Of a stretch of 52,880 bases of DNA, positions 24,793 through 49,687 are shown one piece after another (positions within the stretch are counted from its first letter, which is position 1; each line of letters begins with the position of its first letter). The notes below the pieces were generated by a model. The model saw only the letters and a list, made by a program, of their open reading frames with translations. It was not told the DNA's origin and made no database searches. Made by a program: the position numbers and the translations under genes. Source of the stretch: Candidatus Pacearchaeota archaeon (lineage in GTDB: Archaea > Nanobdellota > Nanobdellia > Pacearchaeales > GW2011-AR1); NCBI GenBank assembly GCA_017609885.1, contig JAFCDB010000013.1:1-52880 (forward strand), read 5' to 3'.

Positions 24793-25227
24793 TTAATCAT
24801 CTTCTCCTGTTCTATTTTTTTGAACAAATGTTCTAATTTCTTGAACAAACTTCTCTGCTTTCTTAATCACTTCTTTAACATCACACTTCTCAATAATATT
24901 TACTTCTCTATAAACTACTATATTTCTCTTTTTTCTTACTTTATCAAAAAAATTAATCAATTCTTTATTAAGTTTTGTTTCTCGCAAAAACTCAAAAACT
25001 GATTTGTGTTGTTCGCTCCCTACTGGCTTAAATCCTAAACTAAACATCAATGTTCTTGCACTTTGCAACACAGCATTATATGCAATAGAATATGTCCAAT
25101 CATAATCTCCCTCTTCTAAAATATTTTTTGCAGTCCTTAAATCTCTCTCTGCCAAACTAAAGTCAGGTTCTTGTTTTATCAAGAGCTTTTTTATTTTCCT
25201 ATCCCTTAACAATTTTCCGAAGTTCAT
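24793..25227 (-). CDS. HEPN domain protein
   Basis: A..DL..A..IL..GDYDW....AYNA....AR, H in GSEQHK, R..RN...Y motif; overlaps the MNT gene. Confidence 0.88.
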   Translation of the reverse strand: MNFGKLLRDRKIKKLLIKQEPDFSLAERDLRTAKNILEEGDYDWTYSIAYNAVLQSARTLMFSLGFKPVGSEQHKSVFEFLRETKLNKELINFFDKVRKKRNIVVYREVNIIEKCDVKEVIKKAEKFVQEIRTFVQKNRTGEDD

Positions 25228-25765
25228 CTTCCTCTCCCTTTATCATGATTACTTTTCCAGCAAAAATTTCATTCATCAACCTATTATCTTTCTTTTTTTG
25301 GATACTTTTAATTGACCAAACAACTGGATTAATTTCTCTTCCTGTTTCTTCTTCTAATGGTTTGAATAACTTAAAAGTTTCAGACAACTTTACATTTCCA
25401 ATAATTAAAACATCAATATCACTTTCTGTATGGTAATCTCCCCGGGAAAAACTCCCAAAAACCAGCGCAAATTCTATTTTTTTATTTTTCTTCAGTAAAT
25501 CTTCTAGAGAGTAAACAATATAATCTGTTTTAACAAAAATACTTTTTAACTCATCAACAATGTTGTTCTTTCTATTTAATTTTATTTTATTTCCCTCTTT
25601 TTCTATCACACCAACACTCTCAAGATTATCAATCTCTCTCTTCACAGCACTTGAAGAAATTTTTAATTGATTAGAAATTTCTCTAATATGAGTTTCCTTG
25701 CTTTCAAAAAATAAATATTTCATTATTTTTATTCTGTTTTTTGATGTAAATATTTTTTCTAACAT
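25199..25765 (-). CDS. wHTH-fused minimal nucleotidyltransferase (MNT antitoxin)
   Basis: N-terminal ArsR-like HTH; FGSFSRG...SDIDV motif; likely start ATG 25765. Confidence 0.9.
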   Translation of the reverse strand: MLEKIFTSKNRIKIMKYLFFESKETHIREISNQLKISSSAVKREIDNLESVGVIEKEGNKIKLNRKNNIVDELKSIFVKTDYIVYSLEDLLKKNKKIEFALVFGSFSRGDYHTESDIDVLIIGNVKLSETFKLFKPLEEETGREINPVVWSIKSIQKKKDNRLMNEIFAGKVIMIKGEEDELRKIVKG

Positions 25766-25766
25766 T

Positions 25767-27572
25767 TTAACTCCCCTTAGCAAAGTTGTAAGCTTTGATT
25801 ATCATTCCTTGAACAACATTTCCTGCAGGCTGCGAACCTCTGAAAGTTTCCTCTCCAGTTTGCTGCGCCCCCCCAAATTCCTGGCTTTGTGATTGCGGTG
25901 CTTCTTCTCTTTCATCGCCAACTTGAGTTTCTTTTCCCCCTTTAATTTTTATTTCATAACCCTCATTTACAAATTTTCCGACATAATTTGCCCCTGGACC
26001 GCAGTCTCCCAAAGACGAACAATAAAACATTGCAGCTAATGCAGTTTTCTTTGATTCAGGATTATCCGGGTCGCAGAAGCAGTTTTCTACGCATTTTTTT
26101 TCTCCTCCAATTGCTCGCTTTTCATATTTTACAATACATGTCTGCGTTCCTGCCATGCAAACATCCTGCGCATTTTCACTCCAGAAATCCAAACCCGGTG
26201 CAACTTTCGGAACACACTTTCCATAAGATTCCTGGTCTTCAATCTGCACATTAAACAACTCTGCTTTTACAGTGTCAATATCCAGCATATTTCTAATTGC
26301 ATTGTCAACTCTTCCTTTTTCATCAATCGGCAACCAGATGCAATCTCTTTGATAGCGGTTCAAACAATCTCTTGTCTTATTCTGCAAAATACAATCCTGC
26401 CACCGATTCACAATACATCCTGCCTGAGAAAAATCCTCTCCCTCTGTTTCAATTGCATCTTCAACACAAACCTCGTTCCTAAAATCCCCGCATGGTTCAA
26501 CAATTTCCTCACCCATATAACAAATATGTCTGTAATGCCTTGAACCAACAGAATCTGCATTTTGATTTCCATTGTCATAGTAGCACCACGACTCGCCGTT
26601 TTTGTAGTCCTCGCCATTTGAAGTATCATAGCAATTTACATCCTGGCAAATATAATCTCCATAAGCTGGTTTTTGTCCTCGGAGAGCTTCTGCGCAAATT
26701 GTCCCCTGCCCAAGATATTCACAATTACCACAACCTCTTGGTGAACCATGACAACTTTCCTCTGGATGTTTTATCTTTGTCCAATAAGCTGCACTATTTA
26801 ATTTACTTGCGTCATAAATATTCGCCCTATTTCCGCAAGTATCAACAAAATAAACCCGGCCATTTTCACATCTTGTTTCCTGTGTTTTTGCACAATCTGT
26901 CTCCAGCTCTTCTGCGGTGCACAAATAATCTTTATAAAATCTTATTGATTCCTGATCTGAAACTTGCTCACCAAGTTCTGCAGAATCACACTCATCTCGT
27001 GTTCCAAATCTGCAGGTTTTCACAAATTCTGATTCAAATACGCATGCCCCAAAATCCTGCGAAGTTGCAAGAGCAATACATGAAAGTTCATCAGCTACAT
27101 CTGTCCTGAAATTTGTCTGCAACCCATAAATTCCAGAAAGTTTCTTGCATCTTTGCAAAGTTACATAAGCTGCTTCTGTTCCAAGTAAACAACAGCCCAT
27201 ATTACATCGAGGAATCTGGCAGTTTGCGTTTTCCTCCCATGAGCCGTTTGCAGCTGAACATGCTTCTTCAGGCGTATTTTCCATGCAAATTCCTTCGTCG
27301 CTGTCATAACAACATCCCTTTTTACAATAACTTGTTGCCTCGCATGAAGTAGGGCTTACTTTAAAATTTGCATCGCAATTTTCCTCTGGCTCATTTTGGC
27401 AATAAGCTCCTGTCAGGGTTTTCTCACAGCAAAAACTCACTTCCTGCGCAGAAACAAACACTCCTAAAACTACTAAACAAATTATCACAAGCAAAATTCC
27501 TGCAGCTATTTTTTCCCTCTTTGTCATTTTTCCTCTTACACTTTCTTGGTTTTTATTTTTATATGTTCTCAT
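25767..27572 (-). CDS. Secreted Cys-rich protein; paralog of N-half of 28395-32078
   Basis: Signal peptide; NGESWC.YD, VGSRH.R..C..GE..VEPC.D.R.E.CVE, C.SLGDCG...NYVGK shared with the large protein. Confidence 0.8.
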   Translation of the reverse strand: MRTYKNKNQESVRGKMTKREKIAAGILLVIICLVVLGVFVSAQEVSFCCEKTLTGAYCQNEPEENCDANFKVSPTSCEATSYCKKGCCYDSDEGICMENTPEEACSAANGSWEENANCQIPRCNMGCCLLGTEAAYVTLQRCKKLSGIYGLQTNFRTDVADELSCIALATSQDFGACVFESEFVKTCRFGTRDECDSAELGEQVSDQESIRFYKDYLCTAEELETDCAKTQETRCENGRVYFVDTCGNRANIYDASKLNSAAYWTKIKHPEESCHGSPRGCGNCEYLGQGTICAEALRGQKPAYGDYICQDVNCYDTSNGEDYKNGESWCYYDNGNQNADSVGSRHYRHICYMGEEIVEPCGDFRNEVCVEDAIETEGEDFSQAGCIVNRWQDCILQNKTRDCLNRYQRDCIWLPIDEKGRVDNAIRNMLDIDTVKAELFNVQIEDQESYGKCVPKVAPGLDFWSENAQDVCMAGTQTCIVKYEKRAIGGEKKCVENCFCDPDNPESKKTALAAMFYCSSLGDCGPGANYVGKFVNEGYEIKIKGGKETQVGDEREEAPQSQSQEFGGAQQTGEETFRGSQPAGNVVQGMIIKAYNFAKGS

Positions 27573-28394: not shown

Positions 28395-31300
28395 CTATGC
28401 AATTGAATCATCTGGCTGAACAATTATCGAGCATCCAGAAAATCTGTTGCTCCAATTATCCTCACAGATAATATAATGTGTAACATCAGATTCCCAAATA
28501 GTAGTATGAATTTTCGAATTTTCTCCATTCATCAAATTCGCGTTTTGCAAATTAAAATTGCACCCCCATCTTGAATCTGTATTAAAATAACATCTTGAAT
28601 CTTCATTTGTAACAACAACTAAATTCCCAGAATCATGATAAACCCTTGTCACCTCAGGCCCAATTTCGTCTAATTCTAAACTAAATGAACTTTCTTTTTC
28701 TGCGAAATTCCCCACAGCATCATTGCATTTAACCTCAAATTCATAATCTCCTTTTGTCATGCTTGCTAAAATATGCCGATGATTATTGTCCCAAGTTTCT
28801 GAAAATCTGTCTGAAAATCCCTGCTCTTTAAATTCATATGAACAGCTCGCATTACCATTGTCAACTCCGCCAGAAGTTTCAACCCTCAACTCAACACTAA
28901 TCGGCTCTGTTCCTCGAGTAATAGTTTCATTAGGTTCAATTGAATCTATCTTCAATTCAAACTCACTCTTTTTCAAATTATATTCGTAAACTCCTCCTAA
29001 CTCTGCCCCAATATTTCTCGAACTATTTTCCCCTAACCAAGGCTGGTCCCTGCATAAAATATAATAGCTATTTTCATTTTCTTCAACAGGCAAATTTGCA
29101 GAGCATGAATAACCTAATATTGTTCCTGAATTAACATTTGTCTCACACTCCATTTCATTTTCTAAATATCTATATGCTTCTAACATGTCTCCTGTTATCG
29201 GTCTTATAACATCCCATTTGCACTCTGCAGGTTCATTTACAAAAATAATTGTCTCCTGTTCTGTTGCATTTACAGGAAGAATCGCACCATCTGCAGGCAT
29301 CGTTAGAGTTACAACAGGAGCAGTTCTGTCAGGCCCCGGAGCAACACAAAAATTAATTTGATAATCATGATCATTTTCAATACCATTTATATTCGCGCAC
29401 TTCACATAAAAATTCAACTCCCCAACTTGGTCAAGCAAATATTCATGAATTGTGTCTCCAATATGCTGCTCGATATCATCATCAAAAATCCCCATGTCCT
29501 CTGCATTTTCCTCAGTTATTTCTGCCTCCATCAATTCCTCAAATTCTTCAGGTGTGCTTACTTGAGATGCAATTAAACTCTCAGCACTTGGAAGATAAGT
29601 TGCGTAGGTGTGATTTTTTGTAAGAACATTTCTCTCAAAAAAATAACTCCAATCACTTTCTTCAAAATCTCGTTCCTGTGAAATTCTGCATTGGGCGTAG
29701 ACATCTGTTTCAACTCCAAATATTAAAGGAGTAAATGCCTGAATGCAGTTTCCGTTACTATCTCTGACTTCAAAACCATTTGTAGTTTCAGATTGATATC
29801 TAAACAAACTCCTGTTTAAAATTTCTTCCCAAGGACTTATTGTTGGAATGTTGTCCTCATTGTTGATACTTGCGCAAACTCCATATTCAGTTCCCTCATT
29901 TATCATTCCACAATTCATTCCTAAACTTTCACAGCGATATTTTGAACATGGCTTCATAGGATTTTCATTGCACTTTTTGCAGTTTCCCATAAACGGCCGC
30001 TGCCAAGTTTTGCAGTCAAAAGAGATTTCTACAATTTCTGTTTTCCCGCACCCCATTGCATACATTGCTCCCATAACAATAACTGCTCCAAGTACAGCAA
30101 AACCCAAGGGAGTTGCACCTATGAAAATTCCGCCAATAGAAAGTCCTGAATAAGTTGCTCCTGCTCCAAATAATCCTGCTCCTCCGGCAAGTATCCCTCC
30201 AACTGCCCCAACTCCTGCCCCAATTCCTGCACCAGTTAAAGTACTCCCCAACTGATCCCCAAACATATTCCCTAACTGACTCCCCTCCTCAAAATCCCCA
30301 AAACTTGCATAACCTGATAAAAAAGAATCTGCCATTCCTAAAGGTAAACTTAAAATTGACTCCACACTATCATATCCTCCTGGTTTTGCATGCTGTCCTC
30401 TAACTGCAATTGCAAGAACAGCATACAAAGGAGCAAAAAATGCAGGCGGAGGAGGACGATGCCCATGCGAACCTTTTTTTGAAACACTCGCCCCGAAAAA
30501 TGTCGGCTTTCCAACATAATTAATATAAGCTCCGCAATCTCCTAAACTCGCACACAAATTATTCATCTGCGCTGTAAATCCTGCATTCATACAATTGCAA
30601 TTTTCAACACATGTCCATCCTCCAGGACATTTTTTTACAAACATAACACTACAAGTTTTTGAAGCCAACCCACAAACATTGTTTGCGCTTGTTCCACCAC
30701 CAAACCCTCCAAGCCCTCCTGCAATATCTCCAAATTCCCCTAACACTCCTAAATCTCCCAATGCATCTCCTGCAATTCCTCCTGCAACTCCTACCAAGCC
30801 ACTTGTACTTTCTAAATCAAAACCAGGAGGATATTTTGGAACACACATATTAAATTTAAATTCACTATCAACAAAAATTGGTTGAATACTGCAATCAGGA
30901 TTTAATGCACATTTTGCCATGCATCCTGGCCCGCAATCACCTCCAGAATTCGCAGCAACACACTGCTCCCAAGTATTTACTCTACACATTGCATTATTAA
31001 TTTTCCTAATCCCTTCAACTTCTTTTTCATCCTCGACACAAATTTCCTTTCTGTAATCTGCGCAAGGTTCTACTTTCACCTCTCCATTAACACAAGCATA
31101 TCTAAAATGCCTGCTTCCAACAGGGTCAACACTCAAAGCACCTATACTTCCAATTCCTAAGTTTCCTATTTGCCCGTCGTAAACACACCATGACTCTCCA
31201 TTTATCCTGTCTTTTTTTCTTCCTGCATGTCCTGGCGCATCATCACAATTCAAATCTCTGCAAGTGAAACCTTCCATATTTCCTTTGTCTCCTGCTCCAA

Positions 31301-32078
31301 ACTCTCTGCAAATACTTCCTAACTCATAATTGCAATTTCCACAGCTTGATGAACGCGAATTTGCTGAATTAGGATTGCATGAGTCCTGCTTTGACAAAAC
31401 TTTTCCCTCATTCCACGAGTTTAATTTATTTGAAGAATAAATATTCTCTCTATTTCCGCAACTGTCAAACCAATAGATTTCTTCCTCACCTTCAATACAA
31501 CCTGCTGATTTTTGTTTTTCACAAATAGTATTTAATTCTTCATTAGAACATAAATAACCTTCATGAAAATATTGTAAATCATTTGTTATACTCAAACATT
31601 CGGTTTTTGTCGTGAACTTGCAATTGTTTGTTTCTTCATATGGAATTGGAATAACACACGCTCCTATTTCTCCTGAATCAACAACTGCCATGCACTCCAA
31701 GTCATCTTCTATTGAAGGGTCCCAGTTTCCAGGAGTTCCGAAAAGTTCTGATAATTTCTCGCATCTTCTCTGCGTGACAAATTGCGTATTTAATCCTAAT
31801 GAACAGCAGCCAATTCTGCACGCACCAACCTGACACAGCGGATCATCAAACCAACTTCCTCCTGCTACTTGACAATTTTCCTCAACAACATTTGGGTCGC
31901 AAAGCCCCTCATCCCCATCAAAACAACATCCTAATTCTTCTTCAGATGTTCCTAATGCTCCCACCATTTCAAAATCTCCAACAATAAAAGCAAATGCAAA
32001 AATCCCCAAAACCAAAATCCCAATTTCAAACAGCGACCCTATTTTCTTTTCCAAATTTTTATTTTTCATTTCTGCCAT
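28395..32078 (-). CDS. Giant (~1230 aa) Cys-rich surface protein with central Gly-zipper hydrophobic region and C-terminal Ig-like repeats
   Basis: Start moved to ATG 32078 because the tracked start overlaps a tRNA; signal-like helix, dozens of Cys, GAGIGAGVGAVGGILAGGAGLFG block. Confidence 0.8.
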   Translation of the reverse strand: MAEMKNKNLEKKIGSLFEIGILVLGIFAFAFIVGDFEMVGALGTSEEELGCCFDGDEGLCDPNVVEENCQVAGGSWFDDPLCQVGACRIGCCSLGLNTQFVTQRRCEKLSELFGTPGNWDPSIEDDLECMAVVDSGEIGACVIPIPYEETNNCKFTTKTECLSITNDLQYFHEGYLCSNEELNTICEKQKSAGCIEGEEEIYWFDSCGNRENIYSSNKLNSWNEGKVLSKQDSCNPNSANSRSSSCGNCNYELGSICREFGAGDKGNMEGFTCRDLNCDDAPGHAGRKKDRINGESWCVYDGQIGNLGIGSIGALSVDPVGSRHFRYACVNGEVKVEPCADYRKEICVEDEKEVEGIRKINNAMCRVNTWEQCVAANSGGDCGPGCMAKCALNPDCSIQPIFVDSEFKFNMCVPKYPPGFDLESTSGLVGVAGGIAGDALGDLGVLGEFGDIAGGLGGFGGGTSANNVCGLASKTCSVMFVKKCPGGWTCVENCNCMNAGFTAQMNNLCASLGDCGAYINYVGKPTFFGASVSKKGSHGHRPPPPAFFAPLYAVLAIAVRGQHAKPGGYDSVESILSLPLGMADSFLSGYASFGDFEEGSQLGNMFGDQLGSTLTGAGIGAGVGAVGGILAGGAGLFGAGATYSGLSIGGIFIGATPLGFAVLGAVIVMGAMYAMGCGKTEIVEISFDCKTWQRPFMGNCKKCNENPMKPCSKYRCESLGMNCGMINEGTEYGVCASINNEDNIPTISPWEEILNRSLFRYQSETTNGFEVRDSNGNCIQAFTPLIFGVETDVYAQCRISQERDFEESDWSYFFERNVLTKNHTYATYLPSAESLIASQVSTPEEFEELMEAEITEENAEDMGIFDDDIEQHIGDTIHEYLLDQVGELNFYVKCANINGIENDHDYQINFCVAPGPDRTAPVVTLTMPADGAILPVNATEQETIIFVNEPAECKWDVIRPITGDMLEAYRYLENEMECETNVNSGTILGYSCSANLPVEENENSYYILCRDQPWLGENSSRNIGAELGGVYEYNLKKSEFELKIDSIEPNETITRGTEPISVELRVETSGGVDNGNASCSYEFKEQGFSDRFSETWDNNHRHILASMTKGDYEFEVKCNDAVGNFAEKESSFSLELDEIGPEVTRVYHDSGNLVVVTNEDSRCYFNTDSRWGCNFNLQNANLMNGENSKIHTTIWESDVTHYIICEDNWSNRFSGCSIIVQPDDSIA

Positions 32079-32105
32079 TTTATTGAAATTCGAGAGATTT
32101 GTAGG

Positions 32106-32187
32106 CGCCTCGGCCGGGACTCGAACCCGGACACCGGTGAAGGTCTCGCGCATCAGGCGAGTGCATTACCCTTAATGCTACCGAGGC
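32106..32187 (-). tRNA. Atypical tRNA, anticodon GAT (nominally Ile), long variable arm, G73
   Basis: GCCTCGG/CCGAGGC, GCAT/ATGC, CTCGC-CTGATGC-GCGAG, 14-nt variable region, CCGGG-TTCGAGT-CCCGG; all stems perfectly paired. Confidence 0.85.
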
Positions 32188-32326
32188 ACTTTCTACACCT
32201 CTAACCAAAAAATTTATATAGTTAGTGAAATTAAATATATTATATCCGGTGAAGATATGCATTGCTCTTGATGCTACATTAATCGTAGCATTTTTCTTTT
32301 TTATTATTAAATTTATTTCTATCATT

Positions 32327-33136
32327 TTACCTTGGAGTATTTAACACACACCCTCTTACTGCAAATCTAATTTCCCTTCCATCTCTCAAATCTTTAATTG
32401 TATAAATTTTATTATCATTTCCGGTATTGAATTTGTCAATATCTGCCCAGGTATTTGCTCTCATTAAATTAAGATATTCTGAATTGCAGTAAATAGATTC
32501 CTGCCTCAAAATTTCCTGAATCAAAATTGCCAAATCATAAATCGAACTTTCAAATTCTGCTTCAAAAATATCAAACTCTAACCGCCTGCCAGATTTTCTG
32601 ATATGAATTTCCTTTTCCATAAAAGTCCTTACCTTCCCAGGAACAATCTCAACACTCGAGTTCAATTCAGGAGAAAAATCAACAGAATAATGCTGTTCCT
32701 CTAAAATATTTTCAAAATCATCAAAACAATCTTTAATTCTCTCATCAATAAATCCATAAATTTCATCTTCTAAATGTTTGTCAAAAAGTGGCTCAATAGT
32801 ATTACATCTTGCATAATTCCTAGGCGTAAAGCAAAGATAAGGCACATTCAAATATGTCCCCTGCAAATGATAGCCACTCGGATAGGAAAAATTCCTTGAC
32901 AACTCTGAAGCTCGAATATATCCCCCATTTTCAATAATCTTTTCAACAGCTGTTTCAACATATTCATTAACACACTGCTCAATAAATCCTTCAGGGTCTT
33001 CACCAGGATCAATTACAGGGTCTGGAACAAGAACCCGATTATACAAAAAAAACAACAAAATAACTGCAGCAACTATTAAAATTCCCACAATTACAAAAAT
33101 CGCGATTTGTCCTTTTTTATTTATTTTACCAACCAT
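32327..33136 (-). CDS. Class III signal peptide (pilin-like) protein
   Basis: INKKG|QIAIFVIVG + hydrophobic helix. Confidence 0.8.
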   Translation of the reverse strand: MVGKINKKGQIAIFVIVGILIVAAVILLFFLYNRVLVPDPVIDPGEDPEGFIEQCVNEYVETAVEKIIENGGYIRASELSRNFSYPSGYHLQGTYLNVPYLCFTPRNYARCNTIEPLFDKHLEDEIYGFIDERIKDCFDDFENILEEQHYSVDFSPELNSSVEIVPGKVRTFMEKEIHIRKSGRRLEFDIFEAEFESSIYDLAILIQEILRQESIYCNSEYLNLMRANTWADIDKFNTGNDNKIYTIKDLRDGREIRFAVRGCVLNTPR

Positions 33137-49611: not shown

Positions 49612-49687
49612 AGCCTCGGGCGGGAGTCGAACCAGCGACCTCTTGTTTACAGAACAAGCGCTCTAACCTAAACTGAGCTACCAGGGC
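49612..49687 (-). tRNA. tRNA-Thr(TGT), non-canonical
   Basis: GCCCTGG/CCGAGGC-T, CTTGT-TCTGTAA-ACAAG, GCTGG-TTCGACT-CCCGC; C33, C4:A69 and U51:C63 anomalies. Confidence 0.85.

Follow-up and report, generated by a model that had tools for sequence, protein, structure and literature searches.

The window analysed here is the whole stretch of 52,880 nucleotides from a Candidatus Pacearchaeota archaeon, and its surface-protein operon holds, on the minus strand, a tRNA gene of which G1 corresponds to position 32187 and the discriminator G73 to position 32106. This gene matches Rfam family RF00005 with 56.7 bits (cut-off 29; E = 1.2e-9), is not called by ARAGORN under default settings, and folds into stems of 7, 4, 5 and 5 bp in which every pair is formed, with a 7/5 acceptor branch. 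A preliminary description had listed a cloverleaf with fully paired stems, the loop CU-GAU-GC, a 14-nt variable region with an ACC/GGT mini-stem, and G73, all of which are present; to these we add the strand, an antisense unit, a two-way promoter and an open reading frame over the whole module. The features of the locus are:

24793 to 25783, minus strand: MNT and HEPN gene pair of protein toxin-antitoxin type, inserted in the same surface operon (context only)
28395 to 32078, minus strand: downstream gene for a Cys-rich surface protein, with its likely start at 32078 (the listed start, 32153, falls inside the tRNA)
32080 to 32325, minus strand: 81-codon open reading frame over the whole module, starting 2 nt past the upstream stop and ending 2 nt before the next start
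32106 to 32187, minus strand: extra tRNA gene with a Ser-type body and a GAU anticodon, putative toxin (Rfam, fold, family covariation, family model)
32131 to 32144, minus strand: 14-nt variable region with a 3-bp mini-stem ACC/GGU, predicted first contact of the antisense RNA
32152 to 32154, minus strand: GAU (Ile) anticodon, followed by G37 and C38 (sequence)
32193 to 32197, minus strand: segment of the 5' leader able to pair with the 3' trailer (32100-32105), an extension of the acceptor stem (alignment, pair counts, fold)
32207 to 32226, both strands: two-way promoter-like site with its TATA at 32213-32220 (weight matrix)
32244 to 32302, plus strand: predicted antisense RNA of about 58 nt, putative antitoxin (promoter, complementarity, hairpin and U-run)
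32244-32256, 32258-32277, 32270-32292 and onwards to 32302, plus strand: anti-V-arm, anti-D-arm, hairpin and U-run of that RNA, respectively
32327 to 33136, minus strand: upstream gene for a 269-aa protein, presumably with a prepilin-like N-terminus

Taken singly, the window tRNA folds only moderately better than chance (z = -2.69; 3 of 200 shuffles were equally good). In an alignment of 26 family members, pairing stood at 93% and dropped to 36-46% when the partners were slid, with double-sided changes at 24 of the 33 pairs; the V-arm stem, of 3 bp in the window gene, covaries across the family. A 14-nt V arm is also found in 10 of 22 native tRNA-Ser. An intron in the variable region was considered and rejected, as no splice motif is present and the arm has the length of that of native tRNA-Ser. 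A sequence error is unlikely, since GAU recurs in 17 of 37 relatives and an upstream copy tracks the unusual D-loop and V-arm of the window gene.

The source genome (750 kb, 89% complete, 32 Rfam tRNA matches) further encodes Ile(UAU), Ser(GCU) and Ser(UGA) tRNAs as well as, at C6:7153-7269, a canonical tRNA-Ile(GAU) with a 42-nt intron at 37/38, A37, A38 and A73, which ARAGORN wrongly labels Ser-GGA. The window tRNA is an additional gene beside it. Looking for another canonical tRNA-Ile(GAT) had been proposed in the preliminary description, and this intron-containing gene is the answer. Among the options raised there was a lineage-specific tRNA-Ile with a co-evolved IleRS; with a second GAU tRNA in the genome this option falls, since the window gene is extra, its family is patchy (25 of 401 genomes sampled) and its relatives carry other anticodons.

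Where a canonical tRNA-Ile has A73, A37-A38 and a short variable loop, the window tRNA has G73, G37, C38 and a 14-nt region, and its GAU anticodon sets it apart from canonical tRNA-Ser. In the family model the window gene scores 93.2 bits, followed by two native tRNA-Ser genes (62 and 53.8 bits), while plain alignment scores to the window tRNA were 34.0 for Ser(GCU), 32.5 for Cys, 32.0 for Ser(UGA) and 19.5 for Ile(GAU). The body, described earlier as Ser/Thr-like, is Ser-like and not Thr-like as judged by G73, the 14-nt V arm and the family-model ranking. In archaea, according to the accessible text of PMC9976931, serine identity resides in the variable arm, G73 and G30:C40 and does not depend on the anticodon, and G73 is an antideterminant for LeuRS. 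The window tRNA, with end pairs G1:C72, C2:G71 and C3:G70, has the Ser elements G73, G1:C72 and G30:C40, and the genome's SerRS, encoded at C17:15866-17107, is of standard type (459.9 bits on TIGR00414); its IleRS, encoded at C35:3524-5944, is likewise ordinary, with closest named relatives, among the matches listed, labelled Pacearchaeota, Nanoarchaeota or Nanobdellota. Counted against the serine reading are the occurrence of G30:C40 in 26 of the 37 odd tRNAs (window gene included) versus 22 of 22 native tRNA-Ser, and a D-loop with one extra base before A14, in the type of body to which the window gene belongs (type A, see below), relative to the genome's native tRNA-Ser. For members with CAU or GAU, some charging by MetRS or IleRS is conceivable, given that isoleucine identity depends on the anticodon as well as on the discriminator (PMC9976931, accessible text). 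Among the earlier options, a mis-aminoacylated tRNA bringing Ser for Ile is nevertheless the one that these sequence features favour.

The genetic code is standard, with no reassignment of Ile to Ser: at the 52 ATT/ATC positions of one protein, the genome's IleRS, compared with 60 of 120 listed homologues, the aligned residue was Ile at 43, Val at 6 and Leu, Ser or Ala at 1 each, and the canonical tRNA is retained. The earlier view that wholesale recoding is not supported thus stands. RNase P RNA was found in the genome (98.2 bits, C10:2000-2262), and HARP was looked for there and not found; a caged tRNA in a lineage without RNase P is ruled out by the former. Also rejected was a missing tRNA-Ser(GGA) orthologue with a mutated anticodon, as the ordinary Ser(GGA) genes of relatives have no upstream copy and the site is empty in most relatives.

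Relatives were gathered by sequence patterns and a profile from genomes and metagenomes. They comprise 37 distinct long-arm G73 tRNAs with non-Ser anticodons (GAU, n = 17; AAU, n = 6; UAA, n = 4; CAU, n = 4; CAA, n = 3; GAA, n = 2; AAC, n = 1), a count that covers archaeal loci and leaves out viral loci and those judged bacterial. All 37 have A35, so that the codons read are those for the hydrophobic residues Ile, Leu, Met, Phe or Val; the metagenome search pattern required A35 and two other search patterns did not. Among proteins matching a profile of the 81-aa peptide encoded over the module (124 aligned segments, from 150 listed of 177 matching protein clusters), the residue at the anticodon position has a middle-A codon in 120 segments, and a residue encoded by a Ser anticodon triplet occurs in none. 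The exception to A35, counted against the pattern, is a member at L360 with GUC. Two Ser-type bodies occur in the family, type A, which is that of the window gene, and type B (n = 14). A tree of 49 type A members was built without the anticodon; its support is mostly weak, with 7 strong branches out of 46. On this tree the anticodon must have changed 21 times, yet 48 of the 49 members retain A35.

The profile reached E = 1e-5 or better in 47 of 401 genomes of the Pacearchaeota-like family. The 30 loci returned comprised 25 type A tRNAs (three damaged or cut), one orphan copy and four ordinary tRNA-Ser; type A carriers, counted on these 30 loci from the better-scoring of the 47 genomes, make up about 6% of the sampled family genomes, and their distribution is patchy. 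No type A match was obtained in 400 other genomes of the class or 250 of the phylum, and no Ser-type tRNA of the window kind at 29 orthologous loci compared by synteny (L031-L059). As regards a viral origin, no family member was seen in 120 of about 250 stretches returned, none was found by protein profile, and all four pattern matches were unrelated. Some members are visibly decayed (L134/L349, L150, L153). Short insertions in or after the T arm are seen in the type A tRNAs of L134/L349 and L161, which are possibly inactivated.

These data also bear on the idea of a genuine back-up tRNA-Ile, charged with isoleucine and with a body resistant to anticodon nucleases. GAU is indeed the commonest anticodon and PIN-domain toxins neighbour some members, but bodies of this kind also come with anticodons for Leu, Met, Phe and Val, only 1 of the 17 GAU members has A37-A38, G73 is the antideterminant for archaeal LeuRS mentioned above (PMC9976931, accessible text), and the antisense RNA described below would be superfluous, so that we consider this idea highly improbable.

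Upstream of type A tRNAs, at a distance of about 60-100 nt, the D-arm and then the V-arm of the tRNA are repeated in direct orientation, the anticodon arm being left out; in the window this copy is identical at 17 of 20 D-arm and 10 of 12 V-arm bases. Among 36 testable odd tRNAs, 35 have an upstream copy (at least 11 of 14 bases identical); the same holds for a single ordinary tRNA-Ser among 22 and for 8 among 63 other tRNAs. The single ordinary tRNA-Ser with a copy shows a 5'-half scar, and two of the three best cases among the other tRNAs are modules themselves. Promoters were scored with a weight matrix derived from the promoters of 27 native tRNA genes in the source genome (mean 9.4 bits). 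In 22 of these, the end of the TATA is 23 nt away from G1; native tRNA transcripts would seem to be nearly leaderless, although RNase P RNA is present. The window TATA scores 11.6 bits on the plus strand, facing the antisense unit at 24 nt from its first base, and 8.2 bits towards the tRNA, at 25 nt from G1. Over 27 modules, the opposite-strand site averages 11.4 bits and stands 24 nt from the last base of the copy in 24 of them, while the tRNA-facing site averages 6.6 bits and stands 31 nt from G1 in 20; random windows gave 1.1 bits (95th percentile 7.3), and at native promoters the opposite strand averaged 4.3 bits. A transcript from the usual forward start would contain the leader-trailer helix, which in type A shows double-sided changes (alignment columns 3-10 with 101-108); the window module has a reduced helix and a spacer shortened by 6 nt, a spacing common to locus L369.

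The predicted layout is one of two RNA genes within 200 bp, a tRNA gene and a putative antisense gene. Computed net binding of the predicted antisense RNA is -19.1 kcal/mol for its own tRNA and -4.9 kcal/mol for the best of 33 other tRNA genes of the genome, and a sense-strand copy would bind the tRNA with about 0 kcal/mol in most of the 27 modules. In V-arm duplexes the own tRNA ranks first in 24 of 27; in later-found modules, which have quite different D-arms, the own partner comes first in 15 of 19 and second in the remaining 4. A search of Rfam with the predicted antisense RNA gave no match beyond chance and no family. Of the D-arm differences between copy and tRNA in 26 modules, 51 preserve a G.U pair in the duplex with the antisense RNA and 4 disrupt pairing (33 versus 2 at unpaired positions), counts that overstate the bias since family members are related. 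Against a wobble bias are the later 17 modules, where it is weaker, with 22 keeping and 10 breaking changes, the later set's T>C and C>T changes (6 versus 9, six of these at the duplex end), and the V-arm copy, where no bias was seen (21 versus 23; 3 versus 4 at inner positions). In type B, the copy extends over D-loop and anticodon arm and changes along with the anticodon. Orphan units, consisting of antisense and TATA without a tRNA, exist, and the sole copy-less tRNA (L142) is also without the TATA.

At the same intergenic operon site of a congeneric genome (G006), an Ala-type body (G3.U70, A73) with an AUC (Asp) anticodon lies on the other strand (L037:1202-1273). Here the copy is inverted and downstream, behind a same-strand promoter of 9.9 bits versus 7.4 for the tRNA's own, so that the predicted transcript (about 1294-1370) is again antisense; the geometry thus differs between the two modules, the predicted product being antisense in both. 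Such recurrence speaks against a neutral origin, in which the copy would be a scar left at an attachment site or by tandem duplication, gene conversion would maintain its likeness, and the tRNA would drift along as a passenger. Scars upstream of ordinary tRNAs do exist (Ser-GCU at G000 C29; L023) and some members have decayed as noted. However, the type A copy skips the anticodon arm, its distance to a promoter site on the opposite strand is a fixed 24 nt, it is followed by a hairpin with a U-run, the inverted geometry comes with the promoter turned to match, and the stems show double-sided changes; a neutral origin is therefore improbable.

Orthologues of the 269-aa gene abut the next gene (gap of at most 8 nt) in 17 of 23 relatives, from 24 of 30 loci with usable flanks including the window, which identifies an empty site and the module as an insertion. 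No mobility enzyme or target-site repeat was identified for the modules, and this is counted against the addiction reading favoured below. The 81-codon frame has no Pfam match and probably serves as a filler by which ribosomes can pass along the operon; an open frame would allow the module to sit in genes and operons without polar effect. It is open over 31 of the 37 members, 15 of them inside frames of at least 500 codons and 16 in short ones, with 2 of the 31 in another phase, and is absent in 6, UAA anticodons being in-frame stops. In all 31 open-frame members the tRNA is on the coding strand. This openness likewise counts against the addiction reading, in that it needs an explanation of its own.

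Two further explanations start from this frame. In the first, the 81-aa peptide would be the toxin of a type I system whose mRNA the antisense RNA blocks, as the open frames and the 177 matching clusters might suggest; with the frame absent in 6 members, shifted in 2 and fused inside giant proteins in 15, no Pfam match, and RNA pairing as the conserved feature, this is the least probable of the explanations considered. In the second, which takes in the tRNA-like processing element of the preliminary description and retains it as a minor rival, the tRNA fold would not be used on the ribosome, acting instead as an RNase P/Z cut site in the host mRNA, or as a decoy for SerRS, IleRS or EF-1A, masked by the antisense RNA. 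The coding-strand position, the presence of RNase P RNA and the covarying leader-trailer helix agree with it, as does the finding that some allo-tRNA(UAU) were inactive in translation and two of six killed cells (PMC5389517, accessible text). A cut site, however, would need neither A35 kept through many anticodon switches nor a forward promoter site of its own, and the type B antisense copies the anticodon loop and follows its changes; we regard this second explanation as quite unlikely.

Protein toxin-antitoxin genes keep company with the modules. The MNT and HEPN pair of the window operon was recognised by Pfam (HEPN, E = 8e-15; Polbeta/NTP_transf_2, E = 3e-13), and the homologous operon in G302 holds two other modules. 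The long module-bearing frames are giant LamG-rich surface proteins, one of which (>6,500 residues) carries five modules and one orphan antisense unit. Modules in these giant genes sit in inserts bounded by intein-like motifs; an NCBIfam intein N-terminal region was confirmed in 1 of 8 segments, and Pfam Intein_splicing matched 6 of 11 long frames below its curated cut-off. The inserts are long, and we take them to be inteins partly on the strength of sequence motifs. They carry opposite-strand gene pairs of toxin-antitoxin type while the giant frame stays open, and 20 insert genes scanned gave PIN_2 (n = 3), DUF433 (n = 3), DUF5615 (n = 3), ParE (n = 1) and DUF2283 (n = 1) above cut-off, the inserts with PIN, DUF433/DUF5615, ParE-like and DUF2283 pairs being those at L327 (G236:C2), L328 (G165:C9), L329 (G302:C1) and L346 (G332:C15). 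Reverse-transcriptase and Avd genes of diversity-generating-retroelement type lie beside module loci at L132 and L328:13123-14822. Elsewhere, modules adjoin what are presumably gyrase-like genes (L141, L150, L155) or follow a gene presumably related to threonyl-tRNA synthetase (L077, L119).

This setting could also be read as a regulated mistranslation switch, in which the antisense RNA would limit the amount of Ser-charged missense tRNA and release it when the cell is stressed or in contact with its host, so that surface proteins would be diversified much as they are by CUG ambiguity in Candida. It would produce the same anatomy, the modules do lie in surface-protein loci, two of them adjoin the retroelement-type genes just mentioned, and encoded mistranslation is documented (PMC11415595, accessible text). 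It is unlikely all the same: a tRNA affects the whole proteome and not its own locus, there are up to five copies per gene, orphan antisense units exist, protein toxin-antitoxin pairs occur in the same inserts, and type A is found in only about 6% of the sampled family genomes.

What was observed, namely two halves of a module that co-vary, the geometry of the promoter, a patchy occurrence and protein toxin-antitoxin pairs in the surroundings, is best explained, with a probability that we put at roughly 0.6, by an all-RNA toxin-antitoxin (addiction) module of about 230 bp, in which a Ser-charged missense tRNA would be the toxin, restrained by an antisense RNA. The course of events that we infer, comprising transcription, binding, charging, toxicity and differential decay of the two RNAs, would be as follows. 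A single TATA would drive both RNAs in opposite directions, more strongly on the antisense side, and the antisense RNA, in excess, would pair with the V-arm and D-arm of the pre-tRNA and destroy the fold on which SerRS and processing enzymes rely; maturation may be slowed by the leader-trailer helix, which would leave time for this pairing. Were the locus lost or transcription halted, the antisense RNA would be the first to disappear, leaving the tRNA to mature (RNase P being present) and to be charged by SerRS, and serine would enter AUC/AUU codons in protein cores, so that growth would stop. In this way the module might stabilise costly surface-gene loci, or merely persist there selfishly. 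A broader claim, to which we give slightly better than even odds, is that of a new toxin-antitoxin class, in which a complete missense tRNA toxin and a purpose-built antisense antitoxin from the same TATA would have arisen repeatedly within a single DPANN family, starting from tRNA bodies that are charged regardless of their anticodon (two Ser types, one Ala type). Such modules would be tuned to place serine in hydrophobic cores and would be hidden in-frame in operons and inteins of giant surface genes, which would serve as cargo bays for toxin-antitoxin systems.

Among known systems, hok/sok of type I has an antisense RNA antitoxin, and pairing between its 5' and 3' ends delays activation of the toxin RNA; antisense antitoxin and 5'-3' end pairing are features that the predicted module shares. 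Type I toxins are proteins (PMC10767807, accessible text), whereas in the window module the peptide appears dispensable, a conserved toxic peptide being at odds with the frames absent, shifted or fused as counted above. Type VIII systems are RNA-RNA pairs, namely CreTA and SdsR-RyeA (TADB 3.0, PMC10767807, accessible text), and as in these both toxin and antitoxin of the window module would be RNA. CreTA has been proposed to addict cells to a costly locus, as suggested here, but its CreA represses creT transcription through the CRISPR effector and derives from a CRISPR repeat, whereas the arms of the tRNA itself are the source of the window's candidate antitoxin. SdsR and RyeA lie on opposite strands and overlap (PMC10767807, accessible text), whereas the predicted antitoxin complements part of the tRNA, does not overlap it and would come from a two-way TATA that both RNAs share, the putative toxin being a whole missense tRNA. 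A whole tRNA as toxin is not described for either pair in the accessible text of that source.

Among the bacterial allo-tRNAs, ones that have Leu anticodons and insert serine at Leu codons caused arrest and death of E. coli (Mukai et al. 2017, PMC5389517, accessible text). Like the window family, which for the window gene is a matter of sequence features, allo-tRNAs combine Ser identity elements (long V arm, G73) with a non-Ser anticodon, and like the window module they often lie near toxin-antitoxin systems (PMC5389517, accessible text). They differ in having an acceptor branch of 8/4 or 9/3 type, a D arm similar to that of tRNA-Sec, anticodons for 35 different codons and a bacterial origin (PMC5389517 and the review PMC7609411, accessible text), the window family having a 7/5 branch, being archaeal and close to native tRNA-Ser, and being almost confined to A35. 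No antisense partner of allo-tRNAs is described in the accessible text of PMC5389517 or PMC7609411.

Natural missense tRNAs are known from bacteria and yeasts, and a module with an antisense partner offers a testable answer to the question of how cells tolerate them. The tRNA-ProX family of Streptomyces is reportedly a dedicated mistranslating tRNA with the body of one amino acid and the anticodon of another. Yeast tRNA-Ser(CAG) is a further dedicated mistranslating tRNA (PMC11415595 and PMC6041473, accessible text), and all three, the window tRNA included, combine a mixed body and anticodon with coexistence beside the normal tRNA, but the two others are interpreted as code change or adaptive mistranslation, unlike the window module. 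The accessible text of the mistranslation review (PMC11415595) names no antisense, antitoxin or archaeal case. We found no tRNA with a dedicated antisense partner in the open-access literature, and no published description there of a two-RNA module of the kind predicted, a Ser-type tRNA with an antisense RNA; subscription papers and the supplements of PMC5389517 (gene neighbourhoods) may bear on this novelty.

If the addiction reading is true, a tRNA joins the list of toxin types, archaea gain an RNA antitoxin that acts by direct pairing, and the odd tRNAs inside inteins of giant DPANN surface genes are explained. Annotation calls for caution, as genes of this kind either go unnoticed or are labelled tRNA-Ile, -Leu or -Met, and the frames over them are entered as hypothetical proteins (177 clusters). 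A 230-bp codon-specific mistranslation switch could serve as a laboratory tool.

Several observations lie beside this family. A second tRNA-Thr(UGU)-like gene of the window (49612-49687, minus strand) has the loop UC-UGU-AA, with C33 for U33, and no antisense copy within 200 nt. A tRNA-Leu with an AAG anticodon (A34), unusual in archaea, occurs at G000 C11:7595-7678 and also at L096; Leu(GAG) was not found in the source genome, which is incomplete. Two short-arm modules, each with an upstream copy and an opposite-strand promoter site, were encountered at L330:2429 (G302:C2; C1:G72/A73 Tyr-like body, GUC anticodon) and L083:1494 (G183; 9-nt, or U.G-closed, CAU loop). Lastly, G000 C29:28330-28380 is a 5'-half copy of tRNA-Ser(GCU), about 155 nt upstream of the intact gene, and resembles an integration scar.
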